Below, in pieces: positions 16,090 through 37,790 of a stretch of 64,000 bases of DNA (position 1 is its first letter; each line of letters opens with the position of its first letter). Made by a program: the position numbers and the translations under genes. The stretch is from Alphaproteobacteria bacterium (lineage in GTDB: Bacteria > Pseudomonadota > Alphaproteobacteria > SMXQ01), in contig JBKBHI010000001.1 in assembly GCA_046297835.1 (NCBI GenBank), forward strand, positions 391,354 to 455,353. The letters run 5' to 3'. The notes under the pieces are model-generated. The model saw nothing but the letters and a program-made list of their open reading frames with translations. It was not told the origin of the DNA and searched no databases.

Positions 16090-16647
16090 TCAGCGGACAT
16101 ACCCGCGTAGCCTCGAATACCCCGCCCTCTGATCGGGTGACAGGATCTCCATCATCGTCAGGTGATAACGCAGATGGGCGGTGCGAAGTTGACCCTGGGC
16201 GGCGGCAATCCGAGCGACCAATGCCTCCATGGATTCTCGCGTAACGATTCGGTCAGCGAACACGCGGTCGAGTTCGGTTTCGCCGGCGATGACCTCTCCG
16301 CCGATAAACGCCGTCTCACTTTTCATCGCCGCGAGGAGCCCGGCCGCCCGCTCTTTTTGGTCCGCAGAGAGTTGCAGAGCATCCGCTAGTTCAAGCACAT
16401 GCGACGGGCCCGGATACCCATTCAGTTCGGCGGCCAGCGCAAGTGTCATGCCGCGCCCCGCCCTGAGGTCGGCGACCTGCTGATCTGACAGCGCTTTCAC
16501 GGTGCGGCTCTCCAAATCCGCGTAGGGCGACGCCCCGGTCACTGCCGGATTGGCTTCGTGGCCGACGCGGGGATGATGGTTCTGCGCGGATGCTTGGGCG
16601 ACGAATGTGACGGCAAGCAACGACAAAGCAAAGTACATGCGCAGCAT
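16090..16647 (-). CDS. CpxP/Spy-family (LTXXQ) periplasmic protein
   Basis: Signal peptide MLRMYFALSLLAVTFVAQASA. Repeated LxxxQ motifs (LSDQQ, LSADQ, LSPDQ). Confidence 0.6.
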   Translation of the reverse strand: MLRMYFALSLLAVTFVAQASAQNHHPRVGHEANPAVTGASPYADLESRTVKALSDQQVADLRAGRGMTLALAAELNGYPGPSHVLELADALQLSADQKERAAGLLAAMKSETAFIGGEVIAGETELDRVFADRIVTRESMEALVARIAAAQGQLRTAHLRYHLTMMEILSPDQRAGYSRLRGYVR

Positions 16648-16700
16648 GGTGAACTCCTGTTTTACGCATTTCATCTTGCCATGGTCCGTCTGCCCCGAGC

Positions 16701-17243
16701 ATGATCCGGATCATGTCTGAAATGATCGAATCGTTCTCGAAACTGGCCGAACGCGAGCAGGCGCTAGCTTCAGGAGACAACTTGTTCCGGCAAGGTGATT
16801 CCGTTCTGTCACTGTTCGTCGTAGCAAGCGGAGAGCTGCGGCTGGTCCGGCCGCTGCCACACGGGCCGCATCTTGTATTGCAGCGTGCCAGAGCTGGGAT
16901 CCTCCTGGCGGAAGCGTCTCTATTCGCCGAGCGGTATCATTGCGACGCGCTGGCAATCGAAGCCGCCCGTATCTTGGTCATACCCCGAAAGCGAGTTAAC
17001 GATGCTCTTGCCGCCGACCCCGCTCTAGCCCGTGCATGGGCCAAGCATCTGGCACACGAGCTCCAGCGCACGCGGGCGCAAGCCGAAATTCTCTCACTGA
17101 GAACATTGATACAAAGACTCGAGGCCTGGCTGGGTCTCAACGACAACGCCTTGCCTCCGAAAGGTCAATGGCGGCAAATCGCATCCGAAATCGGCGTGTC
17201 ACCGGAAGCGCTATACCGCGAGTTGGCTCGGCGCCGAGGGTAA
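16701..17243 (+). CDS. Crp/Fnr-family transcriptional regulator
   Basis: A cNMP-binding-like beta-roll (SGELRLVRPLPHG) followed by a C-terminal HTH (WRQIASEIGVSPEALYRELA). Confidence 0.7.
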   Translation: MIRIMSEMIESFSKLAEREQALASGDNLFRQGDSVLSLFVVASGELRLVRPLPHGPHLVLQRARAGILLAEASLFAERYHCDALAIEAARILVIPRKRVNDALAADPALARAWAKHLAHELQRTRAQAEILSLRTLIQRLEAWLGLNDNALPPKGQWRQIASEIGVSPEALYRELARRRG

Positions 17244-17385
17244 TCACAACGCCAAGCATTTCCTCGCGGTGATCTCTTCAACTTTGCAGACAGATTCGTC
17301 ATCGCCCAAATCGCGTCCCGAACCTGCATTTCCGCCTGTTATCAAAAATGTGATGACGTCCGTCGAAATTCCGCAATAGTCTCTC

Positions 17386-17793
17386 ATGATGCGGAAAACC
17401 CTCGCATATCTGCTGATCGTGGCCGTAGCCCTGATTTCCTATGGTCCAGCCAGCACTCCCATGTCCGCTGCGGCCGCCTCGCCCGCAAACGCGGATATGG
17501 CACCCATGCCGACACACGCTGATATGGCGTCCATGCCTGCTCACGCGGACATGGCCTCCTTGCCCTGCGCCGATCAACCCATGGGCACCGACCAACAGGG
17601 CACGAGGCCACCCTGCACCGCCGACTTCGGCAACTGCATGGCTCGGTGCGCGATATTGATCCAGCCGGCCGCGATGGCATATCAGTCCAACCAATATCCG
17701 AAACCTGTCGTCACCGCCTTCAATTGGGCGGTGCCGCCTACGGTCGCGGCTGCTCTCCCCTTCCGACCGCCCCGTTCCTCGATCCTCAAATAA
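17386..17793 (+). CDS. secreted Met/His-repeat protein, putative metal-binding (CopL/DUF2946-like?)
   Basis: Signal peptide. Three tandem 9-aa repeats (ADMAPMPTH / ADMASMPAH / ADMASLPC). Cys-rich tail (PPCTADFGNCMARC). Lies upstream of cusB. Confidence 0.5.
   Translation: MMRKTLAYLLIVAVALISYGPASTPMSAAAASPANADMAPMPTHADMASMPAHADMASLPCADQPMGTDQQGTRPPCTADFGNCMARCAILIQPAAMAYQSNQYPKPVVTAFNWAVPPTVAAALPFRPPRSSILK
17491..17571 (+). repeat. 3 x 27-bp imperfect tandem repeat inside the Met/His-repeat gene
   Basis: Repeats gcggatatggcacccatgccgacacac, gctgatatggcgtccatgcctgctcac and gcggacatggcctccttgccctgcgcc. Confidence 0.7.
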
Positions 17794-17896
17794 ATCTCGC
17801 GGCGCCGCCTGACGACTAGGCGGCTATCAGCACACGCATGCGGATCGCCTGATCGGCATGCCGCCACGCATGTGCGAACGCTATCGAGGATCGACT

Positions 17897-19429
17897 ATGA
17901 ACAAGATTTCAACCCTGATTGCCGGGGGCTTCACCGCTGTGCTCGCCCTGGGCATGATTCTTCTAAACGCCCCCGTTAACGCCGAAAGCCCGACATGGCA
18001 GGCGGTGAAGTCTGAGGTCGCCGTCGGGACATCCGTCCGACTGGAGGTGACGCTCAACGGGGCCACAGGCCCCATTACCGTGACGTCGGCTCGTCTCGAC
18101 ATGGGGCCTGATGGCATGGCGACGATGACCACGCGTATTAGTCCAATCGCGTCAACGACGCCTGGCGTGTTTGCGTTCGAAGCCGACCTTGTCATGGCCG
18201 GCCGCTGGGCACTGACCCTCTCGGCGAAGGTTGAGGGTCAGTCTCAGCCTGTGACGGGGATCGTCGTTTTCACGGCTGTCGAGAAGAAGGCGGGTGCAGA
18301 ATCAGTACCCACGCCAACTGGGGATCGGAAGCTCCTGTACTACCGCAACCCAATGGGCCTGCCGGACGTCTCGTCAATGCCAAAGAAAGATTCGATGGGG
18401 ATGGACTACATCCCCGTCTATTCCGACGAGGTCACTGGAATTGGGGGCGCCATTCGGATTGCCCCGGAACGAGTCCAGCGGGCCGGAGTGCGCACGGAGC
18501 TGGTGGCACCCCACGACCTAACTAGGACAATAAAGGCAGTTGCCACGATCACGCCCGACGAAAGCCGTCTCGGCATAGTAACAGCCAAGTTCGATGGCTT
18601 CGTTGAGCAACTGCTGGTCCCGCTGACTGGTAGCGAAGTTCGCGCTGGCCAGCCCCTCGTGAGGGTCTGGATTGAGAGTAAAGATATCCTGCAAAAGCAG
18701 GCTGATTTTCTTATTGCCCTTAAGCGTCCAGGCGAGGCCGAACAGGCGGAGAGAAACCTGCGCCTTTTCGGGATTTCCGATCAAGAGATTGCACAGCTAC
18801 GCAAGACGGGACAAGCCGTCCGGTCGGTGGTGCTCACTGCTCCCTCGAGCGGTACCGTGTTGGCAAAGCCTTCCGTCGTGGGCATGCGCTTTTCAGCGGG
18901 CGACACGCTGTTCCGAACAGCTGATTTGTCGACCGTCTGGGCGATGGCTCAGGTTTCCGAACGGGACCTGGGCCTCGTGCGCATCGCCCAGACTGCGCGA
19001 ATCACATTGAAGGCCTATCCGAACGCTCCCATCGAAGGTCGGGTTGCATTTATCTATCCGGAAATCGATATGCAGACCCGCACGGCAAGCGTGCGTATCG
19101 AGCTTCCAAACCGCGAGGGAATCCTGCGGAGCGGCCTGTATGCCGACGTCGCCATCGAAGCTCGGCCCGACAGCGGACCAACGCTCGCCGTGCCGGAATC
19201 CGCCATTATCGATAATGGCACGAAGCGCGTCGTCTTTGTCGACAAGGGCAACGGCATCTACGAGCCGCGCAAGCTGACGCTCGGTCAACGCGGGGGCGGA
19301 TATGTCCAAGTGCGCGACGGTCTGGCCGAAGGCGAACGGATCGTCGTCACGGGCAACTTCCTGATCGACGCCGAGAGCAACTTGCGCGCCGCCCTGACCG
19401 CCTTCACGGCCCCGGAGCAGTCGCAGTGA
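17897..19429 (+). CDS. cusB: RND efflux periplasmic adaptor, CusB-like, with an N-terminal extension
   Basis: Signal peptide. Conserved membrane-fusion-protein segments. Stop overlaps the cusA start. Confidence 0.8.
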   Translation: MNKISTLIAGGFTAVLALGMILLNAPVNAESPTWQAVKSEVAVGTSVRLEVTLNGATGPITVTSARLDMGPDGMATMTTRISPIASTTPGVFAFEADLVMAGRWALTLSAKVEGQSQPVTGIVVFTAVEKKAGAESVPTPTGDRKLLYYRNPMGLPDVSSMPKKDSMGMDYIPVYSDEVTGIGGAIRIAPERVQRAGVRTELVAPHDLTRTIKAVATITPDESRLGIVTAKFDGFVEQLLVPLTGSEVRAGQPLVRVWIESKDILQKQADFLIALKRPGEAEQAERNLRLFGISDQEIAQLRKTGQAVRSVVLTAPSSGTVLAKPSVVGMRFSAGDTLFRTADLSTVWAMAQVSERDLGLVRIAQTARITLKAYPNAPIEGRVAFIYPEIDMQTRTASVRIELPNREGILRSGLYADVAIEARPDSGPTLAVPESAIIDNGTKRVVFVDKGNGIYEPRKLTLGQRGGGYVQVRDGLAEGERIVVTGNFLIDAESNLRAALTAFTAPEQSQ

Positions 19430-22400
19430 TCGCTCGCCTCATTAGATGGTCGGCGTCCAACATCGTCCTGGTGCTGATAGGCAGCGTGTTCCTGACGCTT
19501 GCCGGCATTTACGGCCTGACCCGGCTTCCGCTCGACGCGCTTCCCGATCTCTCGGATACGCAGGTCATCGTCTACACGGAGTATCCCGGTCAGACGCCTC
19601 AGGTCATCGAAGACCAGGTCACATACCCTCTCACTACAGCAATGCTGAGCGTGCCGCGCTCGCGCGTCGTGCGCGGCTTCTCGTTCTTCGGCGTTTCCTT
19701 CGTTTACGTCATCTTCGAGGATGGCACCGACATCTATTGGGCGCGGAGCCGAGTCCTTGAATACCTCAACGTCGCGGCGAAGCGATTGCCGGCAGGCGTA
19801 ACGCCGAATCTGGGACCGGATGCCACGGGCGTCGGCTGGATTTACCAGTATGTCGTGAACGGCAAGGACTACGATCTTGCCGAACTTCGCTCCATACAAG
19901 ATTGGCAATTACGCTTCGGCCTTGCGAAAGCCGATGGCGTTGCCGAAGTGGCGAGCGTCGGCGGCTTTGTGAAGCAATACTCTATTGTCGTCGATCCCCA
20001 GCGGATGAGGGCGCTCGGCTTGACGCTAGAAGGCATTCGCGATGCGGTCCGAGCCAGCAATATGGACGTCGGCGGGCGGACGATCGAGCTCTCCGAGACC
20101 GAGTTTATGATCCGCGGCCGCGGCTATATCCAAAGTCTTCAGGACATCGAGCAGATCGTCTTGAAGGCCACCAACGGCGTGCCCGTAACCGTGCATGACG
20201 TAGCAAGGGTCGAACTCGTCCCGGACGAGAGGCGTGGCATTGCTGAATTAAATGGCGAAGGCGAAGTCGCCAGCGGCATTACGATCCAGCGCTATGGCGC
20301 CAATGCACTCGACGTCATCAAAAGCGTTAAGAACCGATTGGCTGATATCGCCTCGAGCCTTCCCGAAGGTGTGAACATCCTTCCAATCTATGATCGCTCG
20401 GTACTCATCGAGCGAGCCATCGAAACGCTCAGGTCCACGTTGATCGAAGAGAGCATCGTGGTGGCGCTGATCTGCTTCATCTTCCTTCTTCACGCGCGGA
20501 GTGCGCTGGTGGCGATCGTCACGATCCCGATCGGCATCCTCGCCGCGCTGGCCATCATGAACGTCCTGGGGATCGGCTCGAACATCATGAGCTTGGGCGG
20601 CATCGCGATCGCCATTGGCGCCATGGTCGATGCGGCGATCGTCATGATCGAGAACGCCCATAAAAGATTGGAACACGCCCCACCTGACATGCCGCGGACT
20701 GAGGTGCTGATCCGCGCGGCACAGGAGGTCGGCCCGGCGCTGTTCTTTAGCCTGCTGATCATCACCGTCTCGTTCTTGCCGATTTTCGCGCTGGAAGCCC
20801 AGGAAGGCCGGCTTTTCAAACCGCTCGCCTACACGAAGAGCTTCTCCATGGGCGCGGCCGCCTTGCTTTCAGTGACGCTAGTGCCAGCTCTGATGGTTCT
20901 ATTCATCCGTGGCAGAATCATTCCAGAAGCCCGCAATCCCCTCAACCGTCTATTGATCTGGCTCTACCGCCCGATCATTCGCCTAGTGCTGCAAGCGAAG
21001 TTCCTCACCATCGTTATCGCTGTGGCGATCCTCGCCGTATCGATCATTCCCGCGAAGCGGCTCGGCACGGAGTTCATGCCAAATCTCAACGAGGGCACAC
21101 TCATGTATATGCCCACGACCTTGCCCGGTATTTCGGTGACCAAGGCGGCGGAGTTGTTGCAAACCCAGAACAAGATCATCAAGACCTTCCCCGAGGTGAG
21201 CTCGGTCTTCGGCAAGGCAGGCCGCGCGCAGACGGCGACCGATCCGGCGCCGATGGAAATGTTCGAGACGATCATCAACTTGAAGCCCGAGACCGAATGG
21301 TCCGCCGGCATGACGGTGGACAAGCTGATCGCCCAGATGGATGCCGCCTTGCAGTTTGCTGGCGTCAGCAACGCCTGGACGATGCCTATCAAGGCGCGCA
21401 TCGATATGCTCTCGACTGGAATCCGCACCCCCGTGGGCGTCAAGATATTCGGAAAGGACCTCAAGGAGCTGGAGCGCCTTGCCCGCGAGGTAGAGACCAC
21501 GCTTCGCAAGGTCGCCGGCACTTCCAGCGCCTATGCCGAGCGGGTCAATAGCGGGTATTTCCTGGAGATCGTACCGGACCGAACGCAGATCGCCCGCTAT
21601 GGGCTGACGGTTCAGGACGTGCAGAACACGATCTCCATGGCTCTCGGCGCTGAAATTGTGACCACGACGGTAGAGGGCCGCGAACGATATGGGGTCGTGC
21701 TTCGCTATCCCCGCGACGTGCGAAGCGATACGGACGCCATCGCGTCCGAGGTTCTCGTCTCACTGCCGAATGGCTCGGCCATACCACTTGGCGAAGTCGC
21801 CACAATCCAGCGCACGCAGGGGCCGACATCCATCCGCACCGAGGATGGGCAACTCGTCGTCTATGTCTACGTCGACATCCGCGACCGCGACTTGGGTGGC
21901 TATGTCCGCGACGCTCAGAAACAGGTAGCCGAACAGGTTGCCTTCCCCGCCGGCTACTTCGCCACTTGGAGTGGCCAGTTCGAGTATCTGGAACGTGCCG
22001 AGGCCCGTTTGCAGATCGTGATCCCAGCCACTCTGCTGGTGATCTTCCTGTTGCTCTACCTGAACTTCCGCCGGATGTCGGATACGCTGATCGTCATGCT
22101 GTCGTTGCCATTTTCCTTGGTCGGCGGCGTTTGGTTCATGTACTGGGAGGGCTTCAACATGAGTGTGGCGGCCGCGGTCGGCTTCATCGCCCTCGCCGGC
22201 GTCGCTGCCGAAACGGGGGTGATCATGCTGGTCTATTTGCATCATGCCTTGGAGGAAGTGCGCGAGCATGCCCGATCGGAGGGCCGCATATTCACCAATG
22301 CAGATCTTCATCAGGCGATCATGACGGGAGCCGTCGAGCGCGTGCGGCCGAAGATGATGACTGTATGCGCCATCATGGCGGGTTTACTTCCCATTTTGTG

Positions 22401-22542
22401 GAGCACGGGCGTCGGCTCCGAGGTCATGCAGCGCATTGCCGTGCCAATGATCGGCGGAATGGTGTCGTCGACGATACTCACGCTTATCGTCATCCCAGCT
22501 CTCTTCGCGTTGATTCACCGACGCGACTTAGGAACTATTTGA
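19426..22542 (+). CDS. cusA: heavy-metal efflux RND pump, CusA/CzcA family
   Basis: 1038 aa. HME-RND hallmarks (conserved N-terminus MIxxxIxxSxxNxxxVL, 12-TM architecture, GAIAIAIGAMVDAAIVMIEN). Confidence 0.9.
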   Translation: MIARLIRWSASNIVLVLIGSVFLTLAGIYGLTRLPLDALPDLSDTQVIVYTEYPGQTPQVIEDQVTYPLTTAMLSVPRSRVVRGFSFFGVSFVYVIFEDGTDIYWARSRVLEYLNVAAKRLPAGVTPNLGPDATGVGWIYQYVVNGKDYDLAELRSIQDWQLRFGLAKADGVAEVASVGGFVKQYSIVVDPQRMRALGLTLEGIRDAVRASNMDVGGRTIELSETEFMIRGRGYIQSLQDIEQIVLKATNGVPVTVHDVARVELVPDERRGIAELNGEGEVASGITIQRYGANALDVIKSVKNRLADIASSLPEGVNILPIYDRSVLIERAIETLRSTLIEESIVVALICFIFLLHARSALVAIVTIPIGILAALAIMNVLGIGSNIMSLGGIAIAIGAMVDAAIVMIENAHKRLEHAPPDMPRTEVLIRAAQEVGPALFFSLLIITVSFLPIFALEAQEGRLFKPLAYTKSFSMGAAALLSVTLVPALMVLFIRGRIIPEARNPLNRLLIWLYRPIIRLVLQAKFLTIVIAVAILAVSIIPAKRLGTEFMPNLNEGTLMYMPTTLPGISVTKAAELLQTQNKIIKTFPEVSSVFGKAGRAQTATDPAPMEMFETIINLKPETEWSAGMTVDKLIAQMDAALQFAGVSNAWTMPIKARIDMLSTGIRTPVGVKIFGKDLKELERLAREVETTLRKVAGTSSAYAERVNSGYFLEIVPDRTQIARYGLTVQDVQNTISMALGAEIVTTTVEGRERYGVVLRYPRDVRSDTDAIASEVLVSLPNGSAIPLGEVATIQRTQGPTSIRTEDGQLVVYVYVDIRDRDLGGYVRDAQKQVAEQVAFPAGYFATWSGQFEYLERAEARLQIVIPATLLVIFLLLYLNFRRMSDTLIVMLSLPFSLVGGVWFMYWEGFNMSVAAAVGFIALAGVAAETGVIMLVYLHHALEEVREHARSEGRIFTNADLHQAIMTGAVERVRPKMMTVCAIMAGLLPILWSTGVGSEVMQRIAVPMIGGMVSSTILTLIVIPALFALIHRRDLGTI

Positions 22543-22552
22543 GGAAACGATC

Positions 22553-23059
22553 ATGCTCTCGCCGTCGCCTGCGAATGTCGCCGCTCGAAAACGCCGTACG
22601 ACGATCTACATCGCCGTTTCCGCGTCTATCGCTCTCGTCATCGCTGTCTTTATGTTTTGGCTATACCCGTCCCTAAGCAGAATTTCTACGGGCCAGCAAA
22701 GCAAGATCGATCCTAGCGACCGAAAACAGGTGGCTTTGGGCAAAACGGTCTATGTAGAGCGTTGCGCCGTCTGCCACGGTCGCAATTTGGAAGGCCAACC
22801 TAACTGGAGGGAACGCAAATTAGACGGAAAGCTTCCGGCGCCGCCGCACGATGCGTCTGGGCATACTTGGCACCACGCAGACGAGCAGCTTTTCCTGATC
22901 ACGAAGGAAGGCTTGGCGGCGATTGTGCCTGGCTACGAGAGCGACATGCCGGCCTATAAAGGGATTCTCAGCGATCAGGAGATCGCGGCGGCGCTCGCCT
23001 ACATTAAGAGCACATGGTCCGCCGACATCCGTGCACGTCAGCCTCAGGCCCTAAAATAG
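22553..23059 (+). CDS. membrane-anchored mono-haem cytochrome c
   Basis: N-terminal transmembrane segment and a single CAVCH haem-binding motif. Lies 11 bp after cusA. Confidence 0.65.
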   Translation: MLSPSPANVAARKRRTTIYIAVSASIALVIAVFMFWLYPSLSRISTGQQSKIDPSDRKQVALGKTVYVERCAVCHGRNLEGQPNWRERKLDGKLPAPPHDASGHTWHHADEQLFLITKEGLAAIVPGYESDMPAYKGILSDQEIAAALAYIKSTWSADIRARQPQALK

Positions 23060-23150
23060 AGCGGACTAAAAATGCTCGCTTCGCGGTTTGGGCGCCCTCA
23101 CATCAAAAGCATTAGCGTTTGGGCGGCGCCGAAGCGCCGCCCAACATCGT

Positions 23151-23342
23151 TTATGAAGGTGTGTAGCCCGCTTCGGCGATAGCTTTTTTAGCCTCGGCCT
23201 CGCTAATTTCGCCTTCGACGGAGACGGTACGCGACGGCAAGTCGATCCGCACTTTGGCTGCAGGAGCCACACTCTGGATCGCCCTAGTAATGACGGACAC
23301 GCAATGTCCGCAAGTCATGTCCTGAACGTTAATCTCTGCCAC
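23151..23342 (-). CDS. copZ: CopZ-like heavy-metal-associated copper chaperone
   Basis: 63 aa with an MTCGHC motif in an HMA fold. Confidence 0.8.
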   Translation of the reverse strand: MAEINVQDMTCGHCVSVITRAIQSVAPAAKVRIDLPSRTVSVEGEISEAEAKKAIAEAGYTPS

Positions 23343-23374
23343 TTTGGCCTCCTATGGTGAGGGTGGGGCACAAC

Positions 23375-23405
23375 GGATGAGGCTTCCCACCCTGGGAAGG
23401 TCAAT
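23375..23405 (-). promoter_or_regulatory. CueR/MerR-type promoter (TTGACC, 19-bp spacer with dyad CTTCCCA-N3-TGGGAAG) reading towards copZ
   Basis: Dyad read at 23384-23400. TTGACC on the minus strand at 23400-23405. 19-bp spacer. Confidence 0.5.
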
Positions 23406-23428
23406 TGCTTCCGTGTGATTTTTTCCGT

Positions 23429-23459
23429 TTGACCTTCCTATCGTTGGAAGGTTCATACC
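23429..23459 (+). promoter_or_regulatory. CueR/MerR-type promoter (TTGACC, 19-bp spacer with dyad ACCTTCC-N7-GGAAGGT, then CATACC) for copA
   Basis: Strongly resembles the E. coli PcopA architecture (TTGACCTTCC...GGAAGGTT). Lies about 80 bp upstream of copA. Confidence 0.6.
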
Positions 23460-23537
23460 TCATGGCACTCGGCCTTATAACGGAGAGAAATCATACAATC
23501 GCCACAGAGCATTTCCCTAGATATCCCAATAAATGGA

Positions 23538-26054
23538 ATGACTTGCGCGAGTTGCGTCGCCCGAGTCGAAAAGGCCATCCAGGCTGTTTCGGGCGTTACG
23601 GCTGTAGCGATAAATTTGGCCGCCGAGCGCGCGCACGTCTCCACCGAAACGGCGGACAATCTGAGTGAGATCGCCAATGCGATTCGGTCGGCGGGATACG
23701 AGCCGGAAGAACGCGCCATCGAGTTGGCGATCAGCGGCATGACCTGTGCGAGATGTGTCGTTCGTGTCGAGAGAGCGCTCTTTGCGGTGCCCGGTGTCGT
23801 CTCTGCGTCCGTCAATCTCGCGACAGAGCGTGCGACCGTGCATGTCATCGACAGTGCGCTGAAGACAGCTGCTCTCATCGGATCAATCAAGCAAGCCGGC
23901 TACAGCGCTGAAGCGATTATCGGCGGACAGCCCGATCTCGCAGAGCACGAAGCGGCTAAGCGCGCTCATGAGCTTCAGTTTCTAAAGCGCTCCACAATTG
24001 TGGCAGCTGCGGCGACCGCCCCACTATTTATTGTCGAAATGGCTCTTCATACAATTCCGGCGGCGCATCACTGGCTCGCCGGCACCTTAGGCGAAACGAA
24101 CTGGCACATAATCAGTTTCGTCCTAGCCACCATTGCGCTGTTCGGACCTGGACTAACGTTCTATCGCAAAGGCGTGCCGAACCTACTGCGACTGACCCCC
24201 GACATGAATTCCCTCGTGGCACTCGGCGCCACGGCGGCATGGGCCTTCTCGGTCATTGCGACGTTCTTGCCAGATGCACTTCCAGCTGGAACAGCAAACG
24301 TCTACTACGAAGCGGCGGCTGTCATCGTGACGCTGATCCTGCTCGGCCGCTGGCTTGAAGCGCGCGCCAAGGGGCGGACAAGCCAAGCAATTAGGCGCCT
24401 GATGACCTTGCAGGCCAAGACGGCTCGCGTCGTCCGCGGTGGTGCGGTTGTGGATGTCGCGATCGACGAGGTCCTATCCGGCGACATTATCGATGTGCGG
24501 CCCGGCGAGCGGATCGCGGTGGATGGCCACGTGACCGAAGGATCCTCGTACATCGACGAGTCGATGATCACCGGCGAGCCGATCCCGGTTCATAAGAGTC
24601 AGGGAGCGAGCGTCGTCGGCGGGACGGTCAATCGCACGGGCGCATTCCGCTTCCAGGCCGACAAAGTCGGGGAGCAGACCATGCTGGCTCAAATCGTTCG
24701 TATGGTTGAGGCGGCGCAGGGCGCCAAGCTCCCCATTCAGGCTTTGGTCGACAAGGTCACGGCTTGGTTCGTCCCCGCCGTCATCGCCGCCGCCGTCGCG
24801 ACCTTTATCGTCTGGCTTGCCTTCGGCCCGTCGCCGACGCTCAGCTACGCCCTGGTGAATGCAGTTGCCGTTCTCATTATCGCCTGCCCCTGCGCCATGG
24901 GGTTGGCGACACCGACCTCGATCATGGTTGGGACCGGCCGCGCGGCCGAGCTCGGCATTCTGTTCCGCAAGGGTGAGGCGCTTCAGTCCTTGCGCGACGT
25001 GACCATCGTGGCGCTCGACAAGACCGGGACTCTTACGCAGGGCCGCCCGCAGTTGACGCATATCGAAACGACCGAGTCCTTCGAGAAGGACGATGTGCTG
25101 GCATTGGTTGCAGGCATCGAGAGCCGCTCCGAGCATCCGATTGGCGAAGCCCTCGTTGAAGCGGCGAAGGACCGTGGCCTAGACGTGGTTGCCCCCACAA
25201 CGTTCGACTCCGTGCCTGGATACGGTGTGGATGGCGAAGTGGACGGACGCCGGATTCAAGTCGGCGCCGATCGCTACATGGCGAAGCTTGGCCTCGACAC
25301 AGCGATCTTCGCCAACGCGGCCCGGCAGCTAGGCGACCGCGGCGAAAGTCCGCTGTTCGCCGCAATCGACGGCAAGCTAGCCGCGATCCTCGCGGTCGCC
25401 GACCCGATCAAAGAAACCACGCCAGACGCCATCAAGGCACTGCATCGCCTGGGCCTGAAGGTCGCCATGATCACCGGAGACAACCACCGTACGGCAGAGG
25501 CCGTTGCTGCCAGACTTGGAATCGATGAGGTCGTGGCAGAGGTACTGCCTGCGGGCAAGGTCGAGGCTGTAAAATCCCTGCAAAGTGCTGACCGACGCGT
25601 CGCCTTCATCGGCGACGGCGTGAACGACGCGCCAGCACTCGCACAGGCCGACGTTGGCATTGCCGTCGGAACTGGGACGGATATCGCCATCGAAAGTGCC
25701 GACGTGGTGCTGCTGGGCGGCGACCTGCGTGGCGTAGTGAATGCGATCGAGCTAAGCCGTGCAACGATGCGCAATATCCAGCAGAACCTGGTCTGGGCGT
25801 TCGGCTACAACACGCTGTTGATCCCTGTGGCCGCCGGAGCTCTCTATCCCATTTTCGGCTTGCTCTTGTCGCCGATGCTCGCGGCTGGTGCCATGGCGCT
25901 ATCAAGTGTCAGCGTCCTGTCCAATGCCCTCCGCCTTAAGAAGGTGACGCCGGCAATACATATCCATAAGACCGCTGCCGGGCCGCATGCTCGCAGAACT
26001 AATGGACGCTGTGGCAGCCTAGTCAACATGCCTCCGCATTATAGCCGGCGGTGA
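23538..26054 (+). CDS. copA: copper-translocating P1B-1-type ATPase with two N-terminal HMA domains
   Basis: MTCASC and MTCARC metal-binding sites. CPC transmembrane motif ([13 protein letters not shown]). DKTGTLT and GDGVNDAP. The first HMA beta-strand (ISLDIPING) is encoded in-frame upstream of the only ATG, with no canonical start. Confidence 0.9.
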
Positions 26055-26089
26055 TGTCTAGAGAGGTCAACAGGGCGGCTTGGTCCATT

Positions 26090-26105
26090 TGTAACAAACT
26101 GTAAC
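26090..26105 (+). promoter_or_regulatory. direct repeat TGTAACA-N3-TGTAAC, putative CopR (OmpR-family) box upstream of copRS
   Basis: ttTGTAACAaacTGTAACg lies about 115 bp upstream of the copR ATG. An identical repeat occurs upstream of the cupredoxin/pcoAB operon. Confidence 0.5.
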
Positions 26106-26221
26106 GCTTGCAGCCGAGGCATATGCGGCTCGGTGCGACAATGCTAAATTCTCTTATGGGCATGGCTCAATCTAACTCGCGACGCGAAAACGCTTCAGGA
26201 TTCGGCGAGAAGCCGAGTGTG

Positions 26222-26923
26222 ATGACGCATGTCCTCATCGTCGATGATGATGGCGAAATCCGCGATCTACTTGGCCGCTTCCTGCAAAAGCATGGCTACA
26301 AAACTAGCGGCGTTCACAATGGCCGTGAGATGCGCAAGAAATTAGAGTCGGAGCAGATCGGCCTCGTGATTCTGGATGTAATGCTTCCGGGTGAAGACGG
26401 CATGACCTTGTGCCGAGAACTCAGATCAAAATCATCCATGCCCATTATTATGCTGACAGCGATGGGAGATGAAACGGATCGCATTATCGGACTTGAATTA
26501 GGCGCGGACGACTATCTGGCCAAGCCCTTCAACCCCAGAGAGTTGCTGGCCCGCATTAAAGCCGTCTTGCGACGGACTGCTATTCAGGCTTCCCCTAATA
26601 AACAGGGAAGAATTGCTTCATTTGCAGGATGGAAAGTAGATCAGGTTCGTCGCGAGCTGACCTCACCAGCCGGCATTTCAAAGGAGCTTACTGCGGGCGA
26701 ATACGACCTATTGATAGCCTTCGTCGAGCATCCGCAACGCGTGCTGACGCGCGATCAATTGCTCGACCTAACGAGGGGGCGTGACGCTGGACCTTTTGAC
26801 CGCAGCATCGATATCCAAGTCAGCCGCCTAAGACGAAAATTGGATGAACATGGACAACCAGGCCTAATCAAAACGGTTCGCGGTACAGGCTATACCTTGG
26901 CTGCAAAAGTTGAATGGACGTGA
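26222..26923 (+). CDS. copR: OmpR-family response regulator (CopR/CusR-like)
   Basis: Receiver domain (LIVDDDGEIRDLL, phospho-acceptor Asp in VILDVMLPG) plus a winged-helix output domain. Confidence 0.8.
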   Translation: MTHVLIVDDDGEIRDLLGRFLQKHGYKTSGVHNGREMRKKLESEQIGLVILDVMLPGEDGMTLCRELRSKSSMPIIMLTAMGDETDRIIGLELGADDYLAKPFNPRELLARIKAVLRRTAIQASPNKQGRIASFAGWKVDQVRRELTSPAGISKELTAGEYDLLIAFVEHPQRVLTRDQLLDLTRGRDAGPFDRSIDIQVSRLRRKLDEHGQPGLIKTVRGTGYTLAAKVEWT

Positions 26924-28251
26924 TGCGCCTTTTTCCAGATAGCATCGCAGGCCGGACGATACTTGTTCTGCTTGTGGGATTAACCCTGTCTCACCTCGTC
27001 AGTATTGGGACCTATCAGAACGATCTTTGGGCCGAGCTTGGGCTCAGCAGTAATCACCATTTAGCTGATCGCATCGCTTCGATTTCTCATGCTGTATCCG
27101 AGCAACCTATAACAAATCGCGAAAGCACGGCGCACAGCCTATCAAGCCGCACGCTCGAGGCGCATTGGCATGACAGCGGTCCAATAGATTTCGGCCATGG
27201 AGAAAAATTAGCCGAGCTTGAGCAACGAATCAGGCAAACTCTGCCTGAAGATCTGGCGAGTGCCGGCTATTTGGTGAATGCCTCTGCTGCATCCACAGGA
27301 CACGGAGACGGGGCAATACGCATTGTTGTTCAATTGTCTGAAAACAGTTGGTTAAGTTTTACCGCAGAGACACCAGACCGGCACCCCGCGAATTCGCATC
27401 ATTTGCTCACGTCGACAACATTGATGGCGCTTGCCGTCATTCTGTTTTCTATAATTTCCGTACGCATTCTGACGGCGCCTTTGCGAAAACTGTCTCAAGC
27501 TGCGGAGCGGCTGGGAACGGATATGTCAGCGCCACCGCTTGCTGAGGCGGGGCCTCGGGAAGTGCGCCAAGCGGCCCGTGCCTTTAATGGGATGCAAGGT
27601 CGTATTAAACGCCTGATTTCAGATCGCATGCAAATGTTGGCGGCGATCTCGCATGACCTTCGGACACCCATCACGCGCTTGCGACTTCGCGCCGAATTCG
27701 TCGAAGATGAAGCTCAACGCCGCAAAATGCTTGAAGACTTGAGCGAAATGGAAGCGATGATAGCCTCCGTCTTGGCGTTCATTCGCGACGATGCTGCCAA
27801 AGAAGATACGAAATCGGTCGACGTCTCGTCAGTGCTCGAAACGATTTGCTCCGATATGACGGATGCCGGCCATAAAGTTCAGTTTGAGCGCGACGAACAG
27901 GTAGTCCTACGATGCCGGCCGTTAGCTCTGAAACGCGCTCTGATTAATCTGATCGACAATGCAATAAAATATGGCCATTCGGCAACCGTCGCATTGACGT
28001 CCGAACCAATAGGAATCCGCATCGATATTGACGATGAGGGCCCCGGGATTCCGCAGGCGCTACGCGAAAAAGCGTTTTCTCCTTTTTATCGGATAGAAAC
28101 GTCACGCAACCGCATGACTGGAGGTACTGGTCTTGGCCTAACGGTCGCCCGCTCCATAATCCGTGCTCATGGCGGCGAAATAGAACTATCCGATAATCCC
28201 GGCGGCGGCCTGCGTGCGACGATTCGGCTTCCCCAAATTATCCCATCCTAG
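26914..28251 (+). CDS. copS: sensor histidine kinase (CopS/CusS-like)
   Basis: Two transmembrane segments. HisKA H-box (ISHDLRTPITRL). HATPase G-boxes (GGTGLGLTVA). Confidence 0.8.
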   Translation: MDVMRLFPDSIAGRTILVLLVGLTLSHLVSIGTYQNDLWAELGLSSNHHLADRIASISHAVSEQPITNRESTAHSLSSRTLEAHWHDSGPIDFGHGEKLAELEQRIRQTLPEDLASAGYLVNASAASTGHGDGAIRIVVQLSENSWLSFTAETPDRHPANSHHLLTSTTLMALAVILFSIISVRILTAPLRKLSQAAERLGTDMSAPPLAEAGPREVRQAARAFNGMQGRIKRLISDRMQMLAAISHDLRTPITRLRLRAEFVEDEAQRRKMLEDLSEMEAMIASVLAFIRDDAAKEDTKSVDVSSVLETICSDMTDAGHKVQFERDEQVVLRCRPLALKRALINLIDNAIKYGHSATVALTSEPIGIRIDIDDEGPGIPQALREKAFSPFYRIETSRNRMTGGTGLGLTVARSIIRAHGGEIELSDNPGGGLRATIRLPQIIPS

Positions 28252-28390
28252 GGCAAGTTAGCCGCTATCCTCGATCGGCCAGCATAGGGTGCTCAGGACT
28301 ATGGGGTGTTAGATAGTCTTGAGCGTCTACACTGGCCGAGCAGCTACTGAGCGCTACAAAAAGTGCAGCACCAAATGATGCTCAATTGGT

Positions 28391-28645
28391 TTATTGGCAG
28401 TTCGTGCGTTGACCGCCAATGCAAGCTGGAACAGCTCTGCTCCTGCTCGGAAGCAGAAAGCCATTAGCTGGTTTGTGTTCCCTCTTATCTCGGTCAATAA
28501 AAGGGGTGGCGGGAGGGCTGTTATCCGTGAGGACCAAGCTCATCCGCGGAGGATCGCCATCCTCATGACGCGCGATGGCAGGCGCGCTGAAAGTTGCCGA
28601 AGCAAAAGCTACGGCGACCACTGCAATTCTCAATGTAACGTACAT
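28391..28645 (-). CDS. hypothetical small secreted protein
   Basis: 84 aa with a clear signal peptide (MYVTLRIAVVAVAFASATFSAPAIA). No homology recognised. Weak call. Confidence 0.25.
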   Translation of the reverse strand: MYVTLRIAVVAVAFASATFSAPAIARHEDGDPPRMSLVLTDNSPPATPFIDRDKREHKPANGFLLPSRSRAVPACIGGQRTNCQ

Positions 28646-28918
28646 AAATTGACTCCCTGATTGATTGCATACCTTCAGGAGTCTATTTGCGCGCTGTAAC
28701 TACGGTATTTCCGGCTTGTTTCTCTTTGCAGCGAATTGTTTCCGGAAGATATCTATCTAGTTCGCAGTCGCGGCGTGTGGGACTGGATCGACTTGGTCAG
28801 AAGTTGGCAGCGGCCAATAACCTAGCGGAACTTATCGATTACCCAGGTCTTCGGTATGAGCCGTTTTTCAAGAGTGGCCTCTACGTATTGGTATGAGGCG
28901 CTTTACGCTTGGAGCGCA

Positions 28919-29502
28919 TCACTCTCGTGCCGCAAACCAAGCCAGGGGCAACGCTATCTCAGCAGACTCGATCAACTGCCGTAAACAGGTCTTGGGAGAC
29001 CAAATTTGCAAGAGTGTGAGCAACGGCAACGTGATGATCCGCGGTACGCGGCGAAACAGCCGCGCAACCAAAAAATACATCGGCAGCATCGAGATGAATA
29101 ACAGCATGTGAAGGGGCTCAATGTACCACCATAGGTACTCCGTCCACAGCACCTGGCCGCCGTTGAACTCCCCAGCGACCAGTGTTGCGGCGAAATATAG
29201 CGTCGTCAATAGCGCAAAGAAGCAGGTAAAATGGACAATTTTGCGATCTAAATAAGTGCGCCAGGGATGATCGTTGGTGCGGCTGAAAAAATAACCCCGC
29301 AATCAAAAAGAAAGCCGGCATTCGGAATGGCTTGGCGAAATCCCCCCAAGTATTGAACCCAGCCCCCAAATTGGGCCAGGCTTTGGACATAGATTGTCGC
29401 ATACAAGCCGACGACGGCGACGGGACAGATCCACTTGGCATAGCCGATCCAAGGAACGCGGGGGTTGCTTTCCTCTAAAGCCATACTGTCTTCCCATGAC
29501 AT
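28919..29502 (-). pseudogene. disrupted membrane protein gene (acyltransferase-3/DUF1624-like?) split over three frames
   Basis: Three consecutive overlapping minus-strand ORFs (29502-29248, 29441-29118, 29302-28919) all encode hydrophobic segments (for example FRMPAFFLIAGLFF). This is consistent with two frameshifts. The region is AT-richer than its flanks. Confidence 0.3.
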
Positions 29503-29639
29503 TCCGTCGATAACGGACTCGGCGCCTCGACGGAATGACTCAACAGGTCTGATCTATGTAAGCAGAAAGAATGCGATTAATGGTTCGGAACCCGCAGCCA
29601 CTTACCAAGTAATTGGCATTTGCATTCTTAAAGGATTGC

Positions 29640-30380
29640 TCAGAACCAGAAGCGAACGCCGGCGACTAGAGACAAGCTATCGACATCCTCCCCTTCAGAT
29701 CGGGCAAGGATCGCCGTCTCTCCCAACTTTCGCTCCCACGCGACACCAACATATGGCGCAAATTTTCTGCTGAACTCGTAGCGCAAGCGCAAGCCCAACT
29801 CGACATCGTTGATGCCGCCTCCCAGCCCAAGTTCGGGCACGTCCTGCGCTGCGAGGGTGATCTCAGCATTGGGCTGCAGAATTAGCCGCTGAGTGATCAG
29901 AAGGTCGTACTCAGCTTCAAATCGCGCTGTGAAATCGCCCTGTTCACTGACGAAGCCTTGGAGGTCGAGTTCGAAATACCCCGGAGCAAGGCCTTGCAGA
30001 CCGATCACGCCATAGGAGCGAGAGGGATCCGGCTCGAAGTCGTGGCGAACACCGACCTGTAAATCCCAATAGTAATCTATGAGGCGGGAATACAGGAGCT
30101 GAACCTCCGCGCTTTCGATGGCGTCGGATAAGCTGTACTCCCCCTTCGTCTTAAGCCAGACCTTGTGATAGTCGCCGCCGTACCAAGCATCGGCTTCCCA
30201 CGCGATGACGTCCTGCCCGTCTTGGGCACGGTACTCGAACTTATCGACGAGTACCGCCCCGACGAGCGGCTCGTGCATTTGAGACATGTTCGACATTGGC
30301 TGCGCATGGACTGCCGTCACCATAATGATCGACGCCAAGGTTGCAGCCGGAGCGACAAGCCAATTCTTCTTCCATTGCAT
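29640..30380 (-). CDS. copB: copper resistance outer-membrane protein CopB/PcoB
   Basis: Signal peptide. Beta-barrel family signature. Terminal aromatic motif (...GVRFWF). Confidence 0.8.
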   Translation of the reverse strand: MQWKKNWLVAPAATLASIIMVTAVHAQPMSNMSQMHEPLVGAVLVDKFEYRAQDGQDVIAWEADAWYGGDYHKVWLKTKGEYSLSDAIESAEVQLLYSRLIDYYWDLQVGVRHDFEPDPSRSYGVIGLQGLAPGYFELDLQGFVSEQGDFTARFEAEYDLLITQRLILQPNAEITLAAQDVPELGLGGGINDVELGLRLRYEFSRKFAPYVGVAWERKLGETAILARSEGEDVDSLSLVAGVRFWF

Positions 30381-30398
30381 GATTCTATCTCGACTTTC

Positions 30399-32264
30399 TT
30401 AGTGCGCTGCCGACGCGGCATCCCGTTGCACGATGACCTTGCGCATCATGCCCGTCTCCATGTGGTACAGAAGATGGCAATGAAACGCCCAACTACCCTC
30501 GGCATCGACCGGAATATCGACGTCCAACGAGGTACCCGGCTTAATGTTCACTACGTGCTTTAACGGGTCGCGCACACCATTACCGACCCGCGGCAACATC
30601 CACATGCCGTGAAGATGCATCGGATGGTTCATCATCGTTTCATTGATGAATTTGAACCGCGCACGCTCGCCGTACTTCAAGACAATGGGTTCTGCTTCGC
30701 TGAACTTCCGGCCGTTGATAGACCAGAAGAAGCGTTCCATGTTGCCCGTCAGGCGAATTTCAATCACGCGGTCCGGCTCTCGGGCGTCGAAAGGCGACGC
30801 AAACGCCTTAAGGTCCTTGTACGACAGCACCTTCGCGCCAGCCGGAGCCCCGGTGTCGTTGGCGAGGGGATCAGCCATCGCCATCGCCCCATGCCCCATC
30901 GCGGCATGATCCATGCCGGGCATAGCTCCTGTGCTAGGTGCCGGGGCGCTATTGGGCGGGCTTTGGCTCATCTTGGAATGGTCCATGCCAGACATTGCTC
31001 CCGCGCCGGATGACGGGGCGGTGGGCATTGCCATCTTAGAATGATCCATGCCGGCCATGCTTCCCTGCGGGGCCGCGGCGCTTGAACCTTCGCTCATCCC
31101 CGACATCGCGCCATGATCCATTTCCATGGGCGCCACGTGCCCCGGACGATCGGTTTCAGGATGAATCGTCCCGCGATCGAGGCCCGTCGGCCCAAAGCTC
31201 ATGCCCATGTCCGCCATCGTCAGCACGGGACGCGGGCGATGCTCCGGTATTTCGCCAACCATGCCCTCGCGCGGCGCCAGAGTTGCCCGAGCGAAGCCGG
31301 CACGATCGATCGATTCAGCGAGGATTGAGTAAGCCTGATCTTCCCGCGGCTGAACGATGACATCGTAGGTTTCAGCAACGGAAATGCGGAATTCATCGAC
31401 GGGGACGGGTTGGACGTTATTGCCGTCCGCCTGCACGACCGTCATCTTGAGGCCCGGAATCCGGACGTCGTAATAGGTCATGGCCGCGCCATTTATGAAG
31501 CGCAAACGCACCCGCTCACCTGGCTTGAAAAGCGCTGTAAAGTTCTTTTCAGGCGATTTGCCGTTGACCAAGAAGGTATATCCCGCGACGTCGGCGATAT
31601 CGGTCGGGTCCATGCGCATCTGGCCCCACATGAAGCGGTCGCTGAGCGCAGCTCCGAGACCGACTTCCTTAGCGTCGCGGAAGAGATCGACAAGGGTACG
31701 ACGGTTGTTGTTGTAGTAGCCAGGCGAGACCTTGAGATTGCGAATGACCGAGTCCGGATTTTCGTCTGTCCAATCCGACAGCATGATGATGTGTTCCCGA
31801 TCGTAACGGAACGGTTCACGCTGAGCCGGTTCTATAACGATCGGCGCATATAGGCCGAGTTGCTCCTGGTTCGCCGAATGGCTGTGATACCAGTAGGTGC
31901 CAGCCTGAATGATTGGGAATTTGTAGATGAATGTTTCCCCAGGCTGGATGCCGTTGAAGCCCTCGCTGATACCTGGAACTCCGTCTTGGGAAGATGGTAA
32001 AAGCAGTCCGTGCCAATGGATCGAGGCGACTTCATTGAGCTTGTTGGTCACTCGAATGGTGACCTCCTCGCCCTCCTTGAATCGAAGAACGGGGCCTGGC
32101 AATTGACCGTTGATCAGCATTCCCGGGCGCTCTTTCCCAGTTATGTTGACCATCTGATTTTCAAGCACCAGATCATAGGTGCCCGCGTTGGCTGCATGGG
32201 CGAACGCCAGCAGGATACCTGAAGCGGCTAATCCAATGCCGCTTTTCAAAAGCCAGGCTTTCAT
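30399..32264 (-). CDS. copA: multicopper oxidase CopA/PcoA
   Basis: Copper-ligand motifs HWHG, HSH, HPMHLHG and HCHLLYH. Central Met/His-rich insert (MDHSKM, MPGMDHAAMGHG). Confidence 0.9.
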   Translation of the reverse strand: MKAWLLKSGIGLAASGILLAFAHAANAGTYDLVLENQMVNITGKERPGMLINGQLPGPVLRFKEGEEVTIRVTNKLNEVASIHWHGLLLPSSQDGVPGISEGFNGIQPGETFIYKFPIIQAGTYWYHSHSANQEQLGLYAPIVIEPAQREPFRYDREHIIMLSDWTDENPDSVIRNLKVSPGYYNNNRRTLVDLFRDAKEVGLGAALSDRFMWGQMRMDPTDIADVAGYTFLVNGKSPEKNFTALFKPGERVRLRFINGAAMTYYDVRIPGLKMTVVQADGNNVQPVPVDEFRISVAETYDVIVQPREDQAYSILAESIDRAGFARATLAPREGMVGEIPEHRPRPVLTMADMGMSFGPTGLDRGTIHPETDRPGHVAPMEMDHGAMSGMSEGSSAAAPQGSMAGMDHSKMAMPTAPSSGAGAMSGMDHSKMSQSPPNSAPAPSTGAMPGMDHAAMGHGAMAMADPLANDTGAPAGAKVLSYKDLKAFASPFDAREPDRVIEIRLTGNMERFFWSINGRKFSEAEPIVLKYGERARFKFINETMMNHPMHLHGMWMLPRVGNGVRDPLKHVVNIKPGTSLDVDIPVDAEGSWAFHCHLLYHMETGMMRKVIVQRDAASAAH

Positions 32265-32285
32265 TGTTATCTCCTCAACATGATC

Positions 32286-32853: not shown

Positions 32854-33049
32854 TCACAGTCCTTGGAATGGTGAGGAGTTTTTGGAATAGTGAGAGTTAT
32901 GGTGGCCAGACTCATGAGGGCTCGGCCAACGCAGGAGCGACCCATAACGCGGGGGGCGTCGGGGGCAAAGCAGACGTCTGCGCTGGCCGATGCAGTAAAT
33001 ATTCACTACCTGAGATTACGTGCGGTCTGTATCTCGGCAATCTCTATTG

Positions 33050-33066
33050 TGTAACAAAGTGTAACA
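33050..33066 (-). promoter_or_regulatory. direct repeat TGTAACA-N3-TGTAACA, putative CopR box upstream of the cupredoxin/pcoAB operon
   Basis: gTGTAACAaagTGTAACAgc has the same half-sites and spacing as the box at 26090. Confidence 0.5.
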
Positions 33067-33601: not shown

Positions 33602-33611
33602 AAGATTCTCC

Positions 33612-37778: not shown

Positions 37779-37790
37779 AGCCGGAGCATT

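Follow-up and report, generated by a model that had tools for sequence, protein, structure and literature searches.

How can copper that is bound outside the cytoplasmic membrane be reported to the ribosome? Nascent exported peptides acting as post-transcriptional copper sensors (CutF and CruR) were described only between 2022 and 2025, with two systems tested experimentally. We analyzed a 64,000-nucleotide (nt) stretch of DNA from an Alphaproteobacteria bacterium (lineage SMXQ01; assembly GCA_046297835.1, contig JBKBHI010000001.1, positions 391,354 to 455,353 of the forward strand), hereafter the window, in which a small open reading frame (ORF) of 135 codons (17386..17793, + strand), hereafter the leader, directly precedes the copper efflux genes cusB and cusA. 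Our analyses suggest that the leader probably encodes a cis-acting, CutF-like, copper-responsive leader peptide for cusBA, that is, a candidate copper-sensing arrest peptide. This reading is built on the ORF itself, its conservation pattern, the synteny of the locus, and a conserved RNA helix over the cusB Shine-Dalgarno (SD) sequence together with the predicted opening of that sequence by a ribosome.

The 135-residue product of 17386..17793 reads, by translation, MMRKTLAYLLIVAVALISYGPASTPMSAAAASPAN-ADMAPMPTH-ADMASMPAH-ADMASLPCA-DQPMGTDQQGTRPPCTADFGNCMARCAILIQPAAMAYQSNQYPKPVVTAFNWAVPPTVAAALPFRPPRSSILK, and contains an N-terminal export signal, three Met/His repeats (27 base pairs (bp) or 9 residues each) and four cysteines. 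The export signal (17386..17475, +) consists of an n-region (MMRK), a 16-residue hydrophobic core (TLAYLLIVAVALISYG) and a cleavage region of Ala-x-Ala type (PASTPMSAAAA, with AAA at 28-31), and its highest Kyte-Doolittle mean over 12 residues is 3.06. The leader stop codon is separated by 103 nt from the ATG of cusB on the same strand (17897..19429, +; membrane-fusion protein with a YtkA-like N-terminal domain; HlyD_D23 1.4e-61, YtkA 1.9e-06, NCBIfam CusB 1e-52). This gene overlaps by 4 nt with cusA (19426..22542, +; resistance-nodulation-division (RND) heavy-metal efflux pump; ACR_tran 6.7e-245), which is followed by a cytochrome c gene (22553..23059, +; Cytochrom_C 2.4e-11) that is syntenic with cusBA in related loci; no cusC or cusF was found next to the window cusBA. 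The initial annotation had described a small secreted protein with three Met/His nonapeptide repeats upstream of cusBA, and this description holds in that the ORF exists and translates as written, its 27-bp copies are in register, and the identity of cusB and cusA is confirmed by Pfam and NCBIfam. Its "Cys-rich tail" stands only as a Cys-rich stretch (PPCTADFGNCMARC, residues 75-88), which is not a tail because 47 residues come after it, including the most conserved part of the protein. The decisive features lie outside what that annotation described, namely an invariant FRPPR C-terminus and an anti-SD sequence in the last codons.

Is this ORF a gene with relatives elsewhere? Among 5.8 billion clustered proteins we found an identical protein from a freshwater metagenome (P0001) and four relatives at 92-47% identity (P0002, P0003, P0004, and P0005), and an exhaustive phmmer search of 1.84 billion representatives added a full-length relative of 130 residues at 31% identity (P0007); another match of the same search (P0006) was rejected as a low-complexity false match. 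In total, the family comprises six distinct members with lengths of 126-146 residues, and a profile search added only one further candidate (P0008, E = 5.4). In each of the six loci, cusB-cusA follows the small ORF directly, with the same orientation and after a gap of 103-124 nt. Loci L001 and L002 share the gene order of cusBA and then cytochrome c, and in L001 (the relative with 47% identity) the order continues with cytochrome c, a MerR gene, and a P-type ATPase gene. The leader frame is open in the six loci down to 31% identity, every indel is in frame (27 bp or 9 bp), and many residues are invariant in the alignment. Among GTDB species representatives, the family occurs only in the metagenome-assembled genome (MAG) that carries P0007 (locus L003, CAZVLU010000016.1, "uncultured Rhizobium sp.").

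Conservation is distributed unevenly along the protein. The six-protein alignment delimits a cysteine region (17566..17649, +) with C61, C77, and C84-x3-C88, a CxxxC motif that reads C84-M-A-R-C88 in the window protein; C61, C84, and C88 are invariant in all six relatives, and C61, the first cysteine, sits in the third Met/His unit. The C-terminus reads F-R-P-P-R-S-S-I-L-K, with FR before the two prolines and six residues after them. Here, the peptide F126-R127-P128-P129-R130 (17761..17775, +), a candidate ribosome-arrest motif, is invariant, as is the longer FRPPRxSIL (i.e., FRPPR plus S132-I133-L134), in the six known relatives. The spacing from the second cysteine of CxxxC to the Arg is 38 residues in the window protein, 40 in P0005, and 40 in P0007. 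By per-region counts, the signal peptide (17 of 22 residues identical in the relative with 47% identity) and the ten residues that precede the final one (LPFRPPRSSIL; unchanged in four relatives, 8 of 10 in the most distant) are the most conserved parts of the leader. In mature secreted binding proteins, the signal peptide is usually poorly conserved and the ligand-binding part is conserved. By these counts, the leader shows the reverse of the pattern expected of such a protein.

The codons beneath this C-terminus tell the two parts of FRPPRxSIL apart. Under the fixed FRPPR peptide the codons vary synonymously (P128 CCG/CCT/CCA, P129 CCC/CCT, and R130 CGT/CGG), as does the codon of S131, whereas the SIL codons are fixed at the nucleotide level except for one pair-preserving change. 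The codon comparison thus separates two kinds of constraint, with FRPPR held as a peptide and the SIL codons held as nucleotides. Beside this, all six loci encode Arg127 (17764..17766) with CGA, a codon used for only 8.9% of the Arg residues in five neighboring genes; slow decoding or an RNA-level constraint may account for its fixation.

What, then, do the SIL codons do as nucleotides? Codons S132-I133-L134 (17779..17787, +; UCGAUCCUC) are a perfect 9-nt complement of the cusB SD region (17886..17894, +; GAGGAUCGA), whose GAGGA core stands 6 nt 5' of the ATG at 17897 and which is invariant in the six loci. This anti-SD 9-mer occurs a single time on the + strand of the window, and all six loci keep the pairing of the 9-bp anti-SD:SD helix, the lone change (C to U in L003) keeping a G.U pair. 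The helix encloses a structured 103-nt intergenic region (17794..17896, +) that holds two hairpins (hairpin 1, 17804..17824, + and hairpin 2, 17830..17875, +) and a 3-bp helix (17799..17801 with 17879..17881, +). The predicted fold of 17760..17915 has an energy of -54.1 kcal/mol (z = -3.24) that was matched by none of 200 shuffles. In the RNAalifold consensus of the six loci, 94.9% of cells pair, compared with ~30-41% when the partners are slid by 1-3 columns. Five compensatory pairs were found, all of them in the enclosed hairpins and the 3-bp helix, and only 2 of 500 column shuffles reach that number. Partition functions computed for the six loci predict that GAGGA is almost never free in the unoccupied messenger RNA (mRNA), with a P(unpaired) of 0.001-0.002, which rises to 0.20-0.48 with a ribosome on Pro129 and 15 nt downstream covered, and to 0.25-0.56 when the ribosome stands at the stop codon. 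No known RNA family was found in the leader-cusB spacer by Rfam, and a consensus scan called neither a promoter nor an intrinsic terminator between leader and cusB. Hairpin 1 is not followed by a U-run, and we therefore rejected classical attenuation through it.

The Met/His repeats that first draw the eye behave differently. Three tandem units form a variable module at 17491..17571 (+), namely ADMAPMPTH (residues 36-44), ADMASMPAH (45-53), and ADMASLPCA (54-62). With Tandem Repeats Finder, 17489..17564 was scored at 89 as 2.8 copies of a 27-bp unit, free of indels and with 79% matches, and repeat finding gives three in-register copies with spacings of 27 and 27 nt that are 72-74% identical. 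That the repeat number could vary between strains, as initially proposed, is borne out by the six relatives, of which three carry 3 copies (the first copy having diverged in one of them) and the others 2, about 1, and 0; P0002 (locus L004) is short of exactly one 27-bp unit, P0005 has about one unit, and P0007 has none. In place of these units, P0007 has its own perfect 27-bp x 2 duplication (L003 8135..8188; GDCPVAVYN x 2, 100% identical, adding a Cys), which lies in the same protein segment and has the same unit length but a different sequence, and which is independent of the window repeat. Because P0002 is without exactly one unit and P0007 carries this independent duplication, the repeat is more than chance. 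The Met/His segment is at the same time the least conserved part of the protein, with 8 of 25 identities in P0005, 4 of 25 in P0007, and 12-residue gaps, and the alignment suggests that the repeats are a dispensable part of the family.

AlphaFold2 run on the six-sequence alignment, which is shallow and yields a low-confidence model, predicted no stable fold for the leader protein; its mean predicted local distance difference test (pLDDT) score is 47, with helices only at 3-19 (the signal) and a short one at 81-90. The missing fold fits a transient sensor such as CutF, which is degraded after export (PMC9973294). Upstream of the gene, a block at 17335..17385 (+) is the sole stretch conserved in the six-locus alignment, including the relative with 31% identity; it holds a direct repeat, TGyTAk-N6-TGTGAT, and then AATAGT, the 3' part reading AATAGT/CATAGT across the six loci and ending ~5 nt 5' of the leader ATG. 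No Shine-Dalgarno sequence is present in front of this ATG, and a consensus promoter scan called no promoter in 17335..17385. The block may be a promoter or operator, and the mRNA may be leaderless or near-leaderless.

A second leader bears on the C-terminal motif. P0008, from a Halieaceae (gammaproteobacterial) MAG (region L014 6001..6560), is 135 residues long, has a signal-like N-terminus, a CxxCC motif and a 39-residue spacing, and ends in PFRPPRHS. Its similarity to the leader family is not significant (E = 5.4), it has no relatives of its own, and it heads an operon of DUF411 (CopG), OEP (CusC), CusB, and CusA. A second cus-operon leader thus carries FRPPR at the equivalent position, which speaks for a function of the motif itself. 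In the predicted fold, the PF codons of P0008 (CCCCUU) pair with the SD of the next gene (AAGGGG); the fold overall is no better than shuffles (z = -0.83) and is that of a single sequence. Just past the P0008 stop codon we also observed a GC-rich hairpin followed by a U-rich run, which resembles a terminator or attenuator.

How might such a leader work? By analogy with CutF of Rhodobacter capsulatus (PMC9973294; bioRxiv 10.1101/2025.02.05.636593), the leader would bind metal, stall at FRPPR, and switch the operon on with copper. Mechanistically, the strongly hydrophobic and conserved signal peptide would target the nascent chain co-translationally to SecYEG, and in the free mRNA the cusB SD would be locked in the 9-bp helix with leader codons 132-134, leaving cusB untranslated. 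With a ribosome at FRPPR, the Met/His repeats and C61, which lie 68-91 residues from the peptidyl-transferase center, would already be beyond the membrane, and C84xxxC88, 41-45 residues back, would be at the tunnel exit or translocon; these placements assume Pro129 in the P site and take tunnel and translocon to have their generally known lengths. Cu(I) or Ag(I) on these ligands might block the folding, disulfide formation, or pulling that normally aids passage through Pro-Pro. The ribosome would then dwell on the last codons, where its footprint and helicase would keep the anti-SD single-stranded, so that a second ribosome could start on cusB.

Several points weigh against this reading. The family amounts to six sequences, four of which are close to one another, and the signal peptide was called heuristically, from hydrophobicity and the Ala-x-Ala rule. 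Pfam, NCBIfam, and an hhalign comparison with SilD (probability 0.5%) gave no significant sequence similarity to a characterized CutF-like or DUF2946 protein. FRPPR is neither RAPP/RGPP (RxPP) nor PPP, the motifs shown to stall, and is a candidate arrest motif only; EF-P may rapidly resolve a plain PP. Within the anti-SD:SD helix there is no compensatory change, only invariance. When Pro129 is in the P site and only the first 11 nt downstream are open (the +11 helicase limit), P(unpaired) of GAGGA is 0.01-0.25. Since the SD is opened only a little by a Pro129 ribosome at this limit, its opening could come mainly from termination, which would be ordinary translational coupling without metal control.

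Other explanations compete with a CutF-like leader. Plain translational coupling, in which the cusB SD is opened whenever the leader is translated, the peptide senses no metal, and regulation is transcriptional (e.g., via the upstream block), accounts for the helix, and a ribosome at the stop codon opens the SD at least as well as one on Pro129. A conserved putative operator or promoter lies upstream, and genes for a Crp-like regulator, a two-component pair, and MerR are found nearby. What coupling leaves unexplained is the peptide itself, i.e., the invariance of FRPPR despite synonymous codon variation, the invariant CxxxC and C61, the 38-40 residue spacing from Cys to motif, the conserved export signal, and the identical PFRPPR ending in an unrelated cus leader, and we regard it as quite unlikely. 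A stable periplasmic Cu(I)/Ag(I)-binding protein, either a substitute for CusF or a SilE/PcoE-like sponge that feeds CusB or buffers the metal while the helix merely couples translation for stoichiometry, has in its favor that the MxxM/MxxH spacing of the repeats and the four cysteines are typical of soft-metal binding, that the operon is without cusF and cusC, and that both independent 27-bp duplications multiply ligand-bearing units. We nevertheless judge such a binder unlikely, because the repeats are absent or reduced in two of the six relatives with the operon unchanged there, the signal peptide and FRPPRxSIL are the most conserved parts, no fold is predicted, no CusF, SilE/PcoE, or other family matches in Pfam or NCBIfam, and the family is very rare, although a needed pump partner would be expected alongside cusBA more widely. 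The stable binder and the leader peptide are not strictly mutually exclusive. Among the roles initially suggested (copper sponge, sensor, or CopL/DUF2946-like regulator), the sponge is thus disfavored, with its repeats least conserved and dispensable and no AlphaFold2 fold, while a sensor-regulator fits best given the CutF/CopL-type architecture and the SD-masking helix in cis to cusB; membership in DUF2946 falls away, as the proposed HMM search for DUF2946/CopL returned no Pfam or NCBIfam match even at E <= 1-10.

CruR, a DUF2946 leader with Cys and Pro motifs, suggests the opposite logic, in which a default arrest keeps the operon on and copper releases the arrest and shuts expression, e.g., by Rho-dependent termination in the 103-nt spacer (PMC9426467). 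Long intergenic spacers are typical of the CruR group, yet an efflux pump should be copper-induced, and the genes headed by CruR-type leaders serve uptake; Rho would load poorly on a spacer so rich in GC and so tightly structured, leader and cusB are not separated by an intrinsic terminator, and the motifs differ (FRPPR vs RAPP, 38-40 vs 45 residues, and CxxxC vs CXXC), so that this logic is very improbable here. Still more remote is a chance ORF in a GC-rich spacer with a repeat left by neutral slippage; the missing family match, the missing Shine-Dalgarno sequence before the ATG, and the very few relatives would agree with it, whereas the frame kept open in six loci to 31% identity, the exclusively in-frame indels, the many invariant residues, and the conserved position relative to cusB make it extremely hard to uphold. 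A bolder form of the leader-peptide reading, which we offer tentatively and hold to be somewhat doubtful, is that the leader represents a previously undescribed arrest-peptide family in which sensing and arrest are spatially split. With the ribosome at FRPPR, which would be a new motif, CxxxC would sit at the tunnel exit or translocon, and expandable 9-residue Met/His (or Cys) repeats would be the part exposed in the periplasm; gain and loss of 27-bp units, of which two independent cases were observed, would tune the copper set-point of the pump, and the SIL anti-SD would fuse the peptide and RNA switches.

Family models did not place the leader. Pfam-A hmmscan of the window protein gave no family at E <= 1, and NCBIfam gave none either; DUF2946 did not match P0005, P0007, or P0008 at E <= 10, and P0007 showed only a weak match to DUF6153 (E = 0.02, below the cut-off). 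Word-indexed, phmmer, and profile searches reached no bridge to annotated CutF or DUF2946 proteins. A scan of GTDB genomes by peptide patterns returned no matches, and a DNA pattern combining FRPPRxSIL with the anti-SD led back only to the already known MAG contig (L009, the same as L003). Other matches of the DNA pattern, in Actinomadura, a Nannocystaceae MAG, an alphaproteobacterial MAG, and one metagenome contig, were dismissed as chance, none lying in a comparable ORF; likewise, tblastn against 72,556 plasmids gave two chance matches, of which the one in Novosphingobium is antisense to a transporter gene. A second CutF-like ORF, e.g., upstream of the multicopper oxidase gene, was not found in the 64-kb window.

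The leader and cusBA belong to a large copper-homeostasis island (window 16090..39077). Besides the genes described above, its members are a Spy/CpxP-like Metal_resist protein (16090..16674, -), a short Crp-like regulator of 180 residues that binds cyclic nucleotides (cNMP; 16701..17243), a P1B-ATPase (23538..26054), an OmpR-type regulator with a histidine kinase (26108..28251), copB (29640..30380, -), a multicopper oxidase (30399..32264, -), a cupredoxin (32286..32945, -), a MerR regulator (33158..33601, -), a second P1B-ATPase (33648..36125), PCuAC (36658..37170) with lspA between it and the second P1B-ATPase, SCO1 (37167..37778), DsbB (37987..38418), and a DsbA-like protein (38415..39077). 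In close relatives (L002 and L004), Metal_resist (Spy/CpxP-like) and the 180-residue cNMP-binding regulator also form a divergent pair directly upstream of the leader, and this pair (window 16090..17243) is absent from the two distant relatives. In L001, a tRNA-Leu(CAA) gene (65..151) lies ~190 nt before the block of leader, cusBA, cytochrome c, MerR, and ATPase, which suggests that the block is a mobile island inserted at a transfer RNA (tRNA) gene; the tRNA gene of the window (53396..53466, -) is far from the leader locus. Residues 50-108 of the window CusB form the YtkA-like domain near the N-terminus (Pfam E = 1.9e-06), placed where E. coli CusB is known to have its N-terminal Met-ligand segment. 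In precomputed Pfam lists, YtkA is flagged on CusB of two relatives only (faint in L001 and weak in L002) and not in L003.

The finding will hardly surprise a specialist, yet it offers a clean and easily testable system. As a compact test case for an RND efflux pump, the locus has a 9-bp helix that can be broken and restored by design, natural variants with 0-3 repeats that allow a direct test of whether ligand number sets sensitivity, and a motif, FRPPR, that is neither RAPP nor PPP and is found again in an unrelated cus leader. Leaders of this kind escape family models, having no Pfam or NCBIfam match, and are annotated as hypothetical or not at all; annotation of copper operons based on DUF2946 therefore under-counts them.

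How does the leader compare with known systems? CusF, SilE/PcoE, and the Met-rich segments of CopA/PcoA share with it the Met/His (and Cys) clusters for periplasmic Cu(I)/Ag(I), but they are stable proteins or domains without arrest motifs, and no HMM of these families matches the leader. SecM-secA of E. coli and the RAPP-class leaders ApdA/ApdP (PMC10951233, PMC12992588) are exported leaders with C-terminal arrest in which the ribosome stands at the 5' strand of an SD-masking helix, as would be the case here; unlike the leader, they sense secretion force and not metal, and their motifs are RAGP or RxPP. The RxPP motif is defined as R-x-P-P near the C-terminus, where x is A, G, S, or P (PMC12992588), and no such tetrapeptide occurs in the leader protein. 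In its anti-SD placement, the leader is nearer to the SecM-secA layout than to the cutF-cutO stem-loop.

Closer in function are the copper leaders. CruR (Bp2923) of Bordetella pertussis, the prototype of DUF2946, has CXXC, RAPP three residues from its end, and a spacing of 45 residues (+/-2) (Roy et al. 2022, PMC9426467); it governs genes for copper uptake and can do without its signal peptide, and copper relieves its arrest and leads to Rho termination (PMC9426467). The leader resembles CruR as an upstream ORF that heads a copper operon and encodes an export signal, a putative metal motif of cysteines and, at a fixed distance from it, a C-terminal Pro motif. It has no match to the DUF2946 (PF11162) HMM and no CXXC, RAPP-type end, or ~45-residue spacing, so that the export signal (heuristic) and the place as first gene of a copper operon (cusBA in six loci) are what it shares with DUF2946. 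CopL of Xanthomonas/Stenotrophomonas, likened here by description only, is a small ORF needed in cis upstream for copper induction of resistance genes (PMC9973294), its target being the CopA oxidase, unlike the cusBA of the leader.

The nearest model is CutF of the R. capsulatus cutFOG operon, which is exported co-translationally via the SRP (signal recognition particle) and SecYEG; copper on its CxxxC delays passage of the C-terminal ...GPPPRL, and the delayed ribosome melts a stem-loop over the cutO SD (PMC9973294; bioRxiv 10.1101/2025.02.05.636593). It acts only in cis (PMC9973294). CutF-like proteins have been defined as signal-peptide-bearing proteins of fewer than 150 residues with PP among the last 15 and a neighboring gene on the same strand within 1000 nt (Ozturk et al. 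2023, PMC9973294). They lie mostly upstream of copper genes, including those for OEP, CusB (HlyD_D23), CusA, and CusF, and among the labeled members are CopL of Stenotrophomonas maltophilia, which is the nearest UniProt protein to Xanthomonas CopL, and the SilD and CusD proteins of Cupriavidus metallidurans (PMC9973294). The leader has 135 residues (<150), P128-P129 within the last 15, a signal peptide (heuristic), and cusB 103-124 nt downstream in six loci, and CutF-type masking of the SD by mRNA structure is predicted for it (9-bp helix in 6 of 6 loci). Like CutF, it combines a Sec-type export signal, CxxxC with a further Cys upstream, and, at the C-terminus, a Pro motif with Arg and a few more residues after it (...GPPPRL-stop in CutF and ...FRPPRSSILK-stop in the leader), and it lies directly upstream, in cis, of a periplasmic copper-detoxification gene with an mRNA-masked SD, for which copper induction would be expected by analogy. 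Unlike CutF, it shows no detectable homology, has PP + R instead of PPP and a shorter Cys-to-Pro spacing, carries the anti-SD inside its own last codons instead of an intergenic stem-loop (cutF-cutO), targets the RND pump cusBA instead of a multicopper oxidase, and has an extra Met/His repeat module.

SilD and CusD of C. metallidurans CH34 (silDCBA/cusDCBAF) are, like the leader, small exported ORFs directly upstream of a Cu/Ag RND efflux operon. The SilD sequence of pMOL30 (MHASYRR...CQAHC...46 residues...RPPPRPLAILHCCFRI) has a CxxxC (CQAHC) and a C-terminal RPPPR. Unlike the leader, SilD has a Cys-Pro spacing of 46 instead of 38-40, an operon that starts with an outer-membrane factor gene, and no Met/His repeats; in the hhalign comparison of the leader family with pMOL30 SilD, only GxCxxxC aligned with CQAHC, at a probability of 0.5%, which is not significant. 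SilD has no Pfam match, same as the leader, and a missing family match therefore does not set the leader apart from accepted CutF-like proteins. The CutF-like class is held together by architecture more than by sequence, and it is by architecture, not by sequence, that the leader belongs to it, showing every CutF-like feature for which we looked. Overall, the leader is most likely an unannotated addition to this recently described class, from a rare sequence family with some distinctive features.

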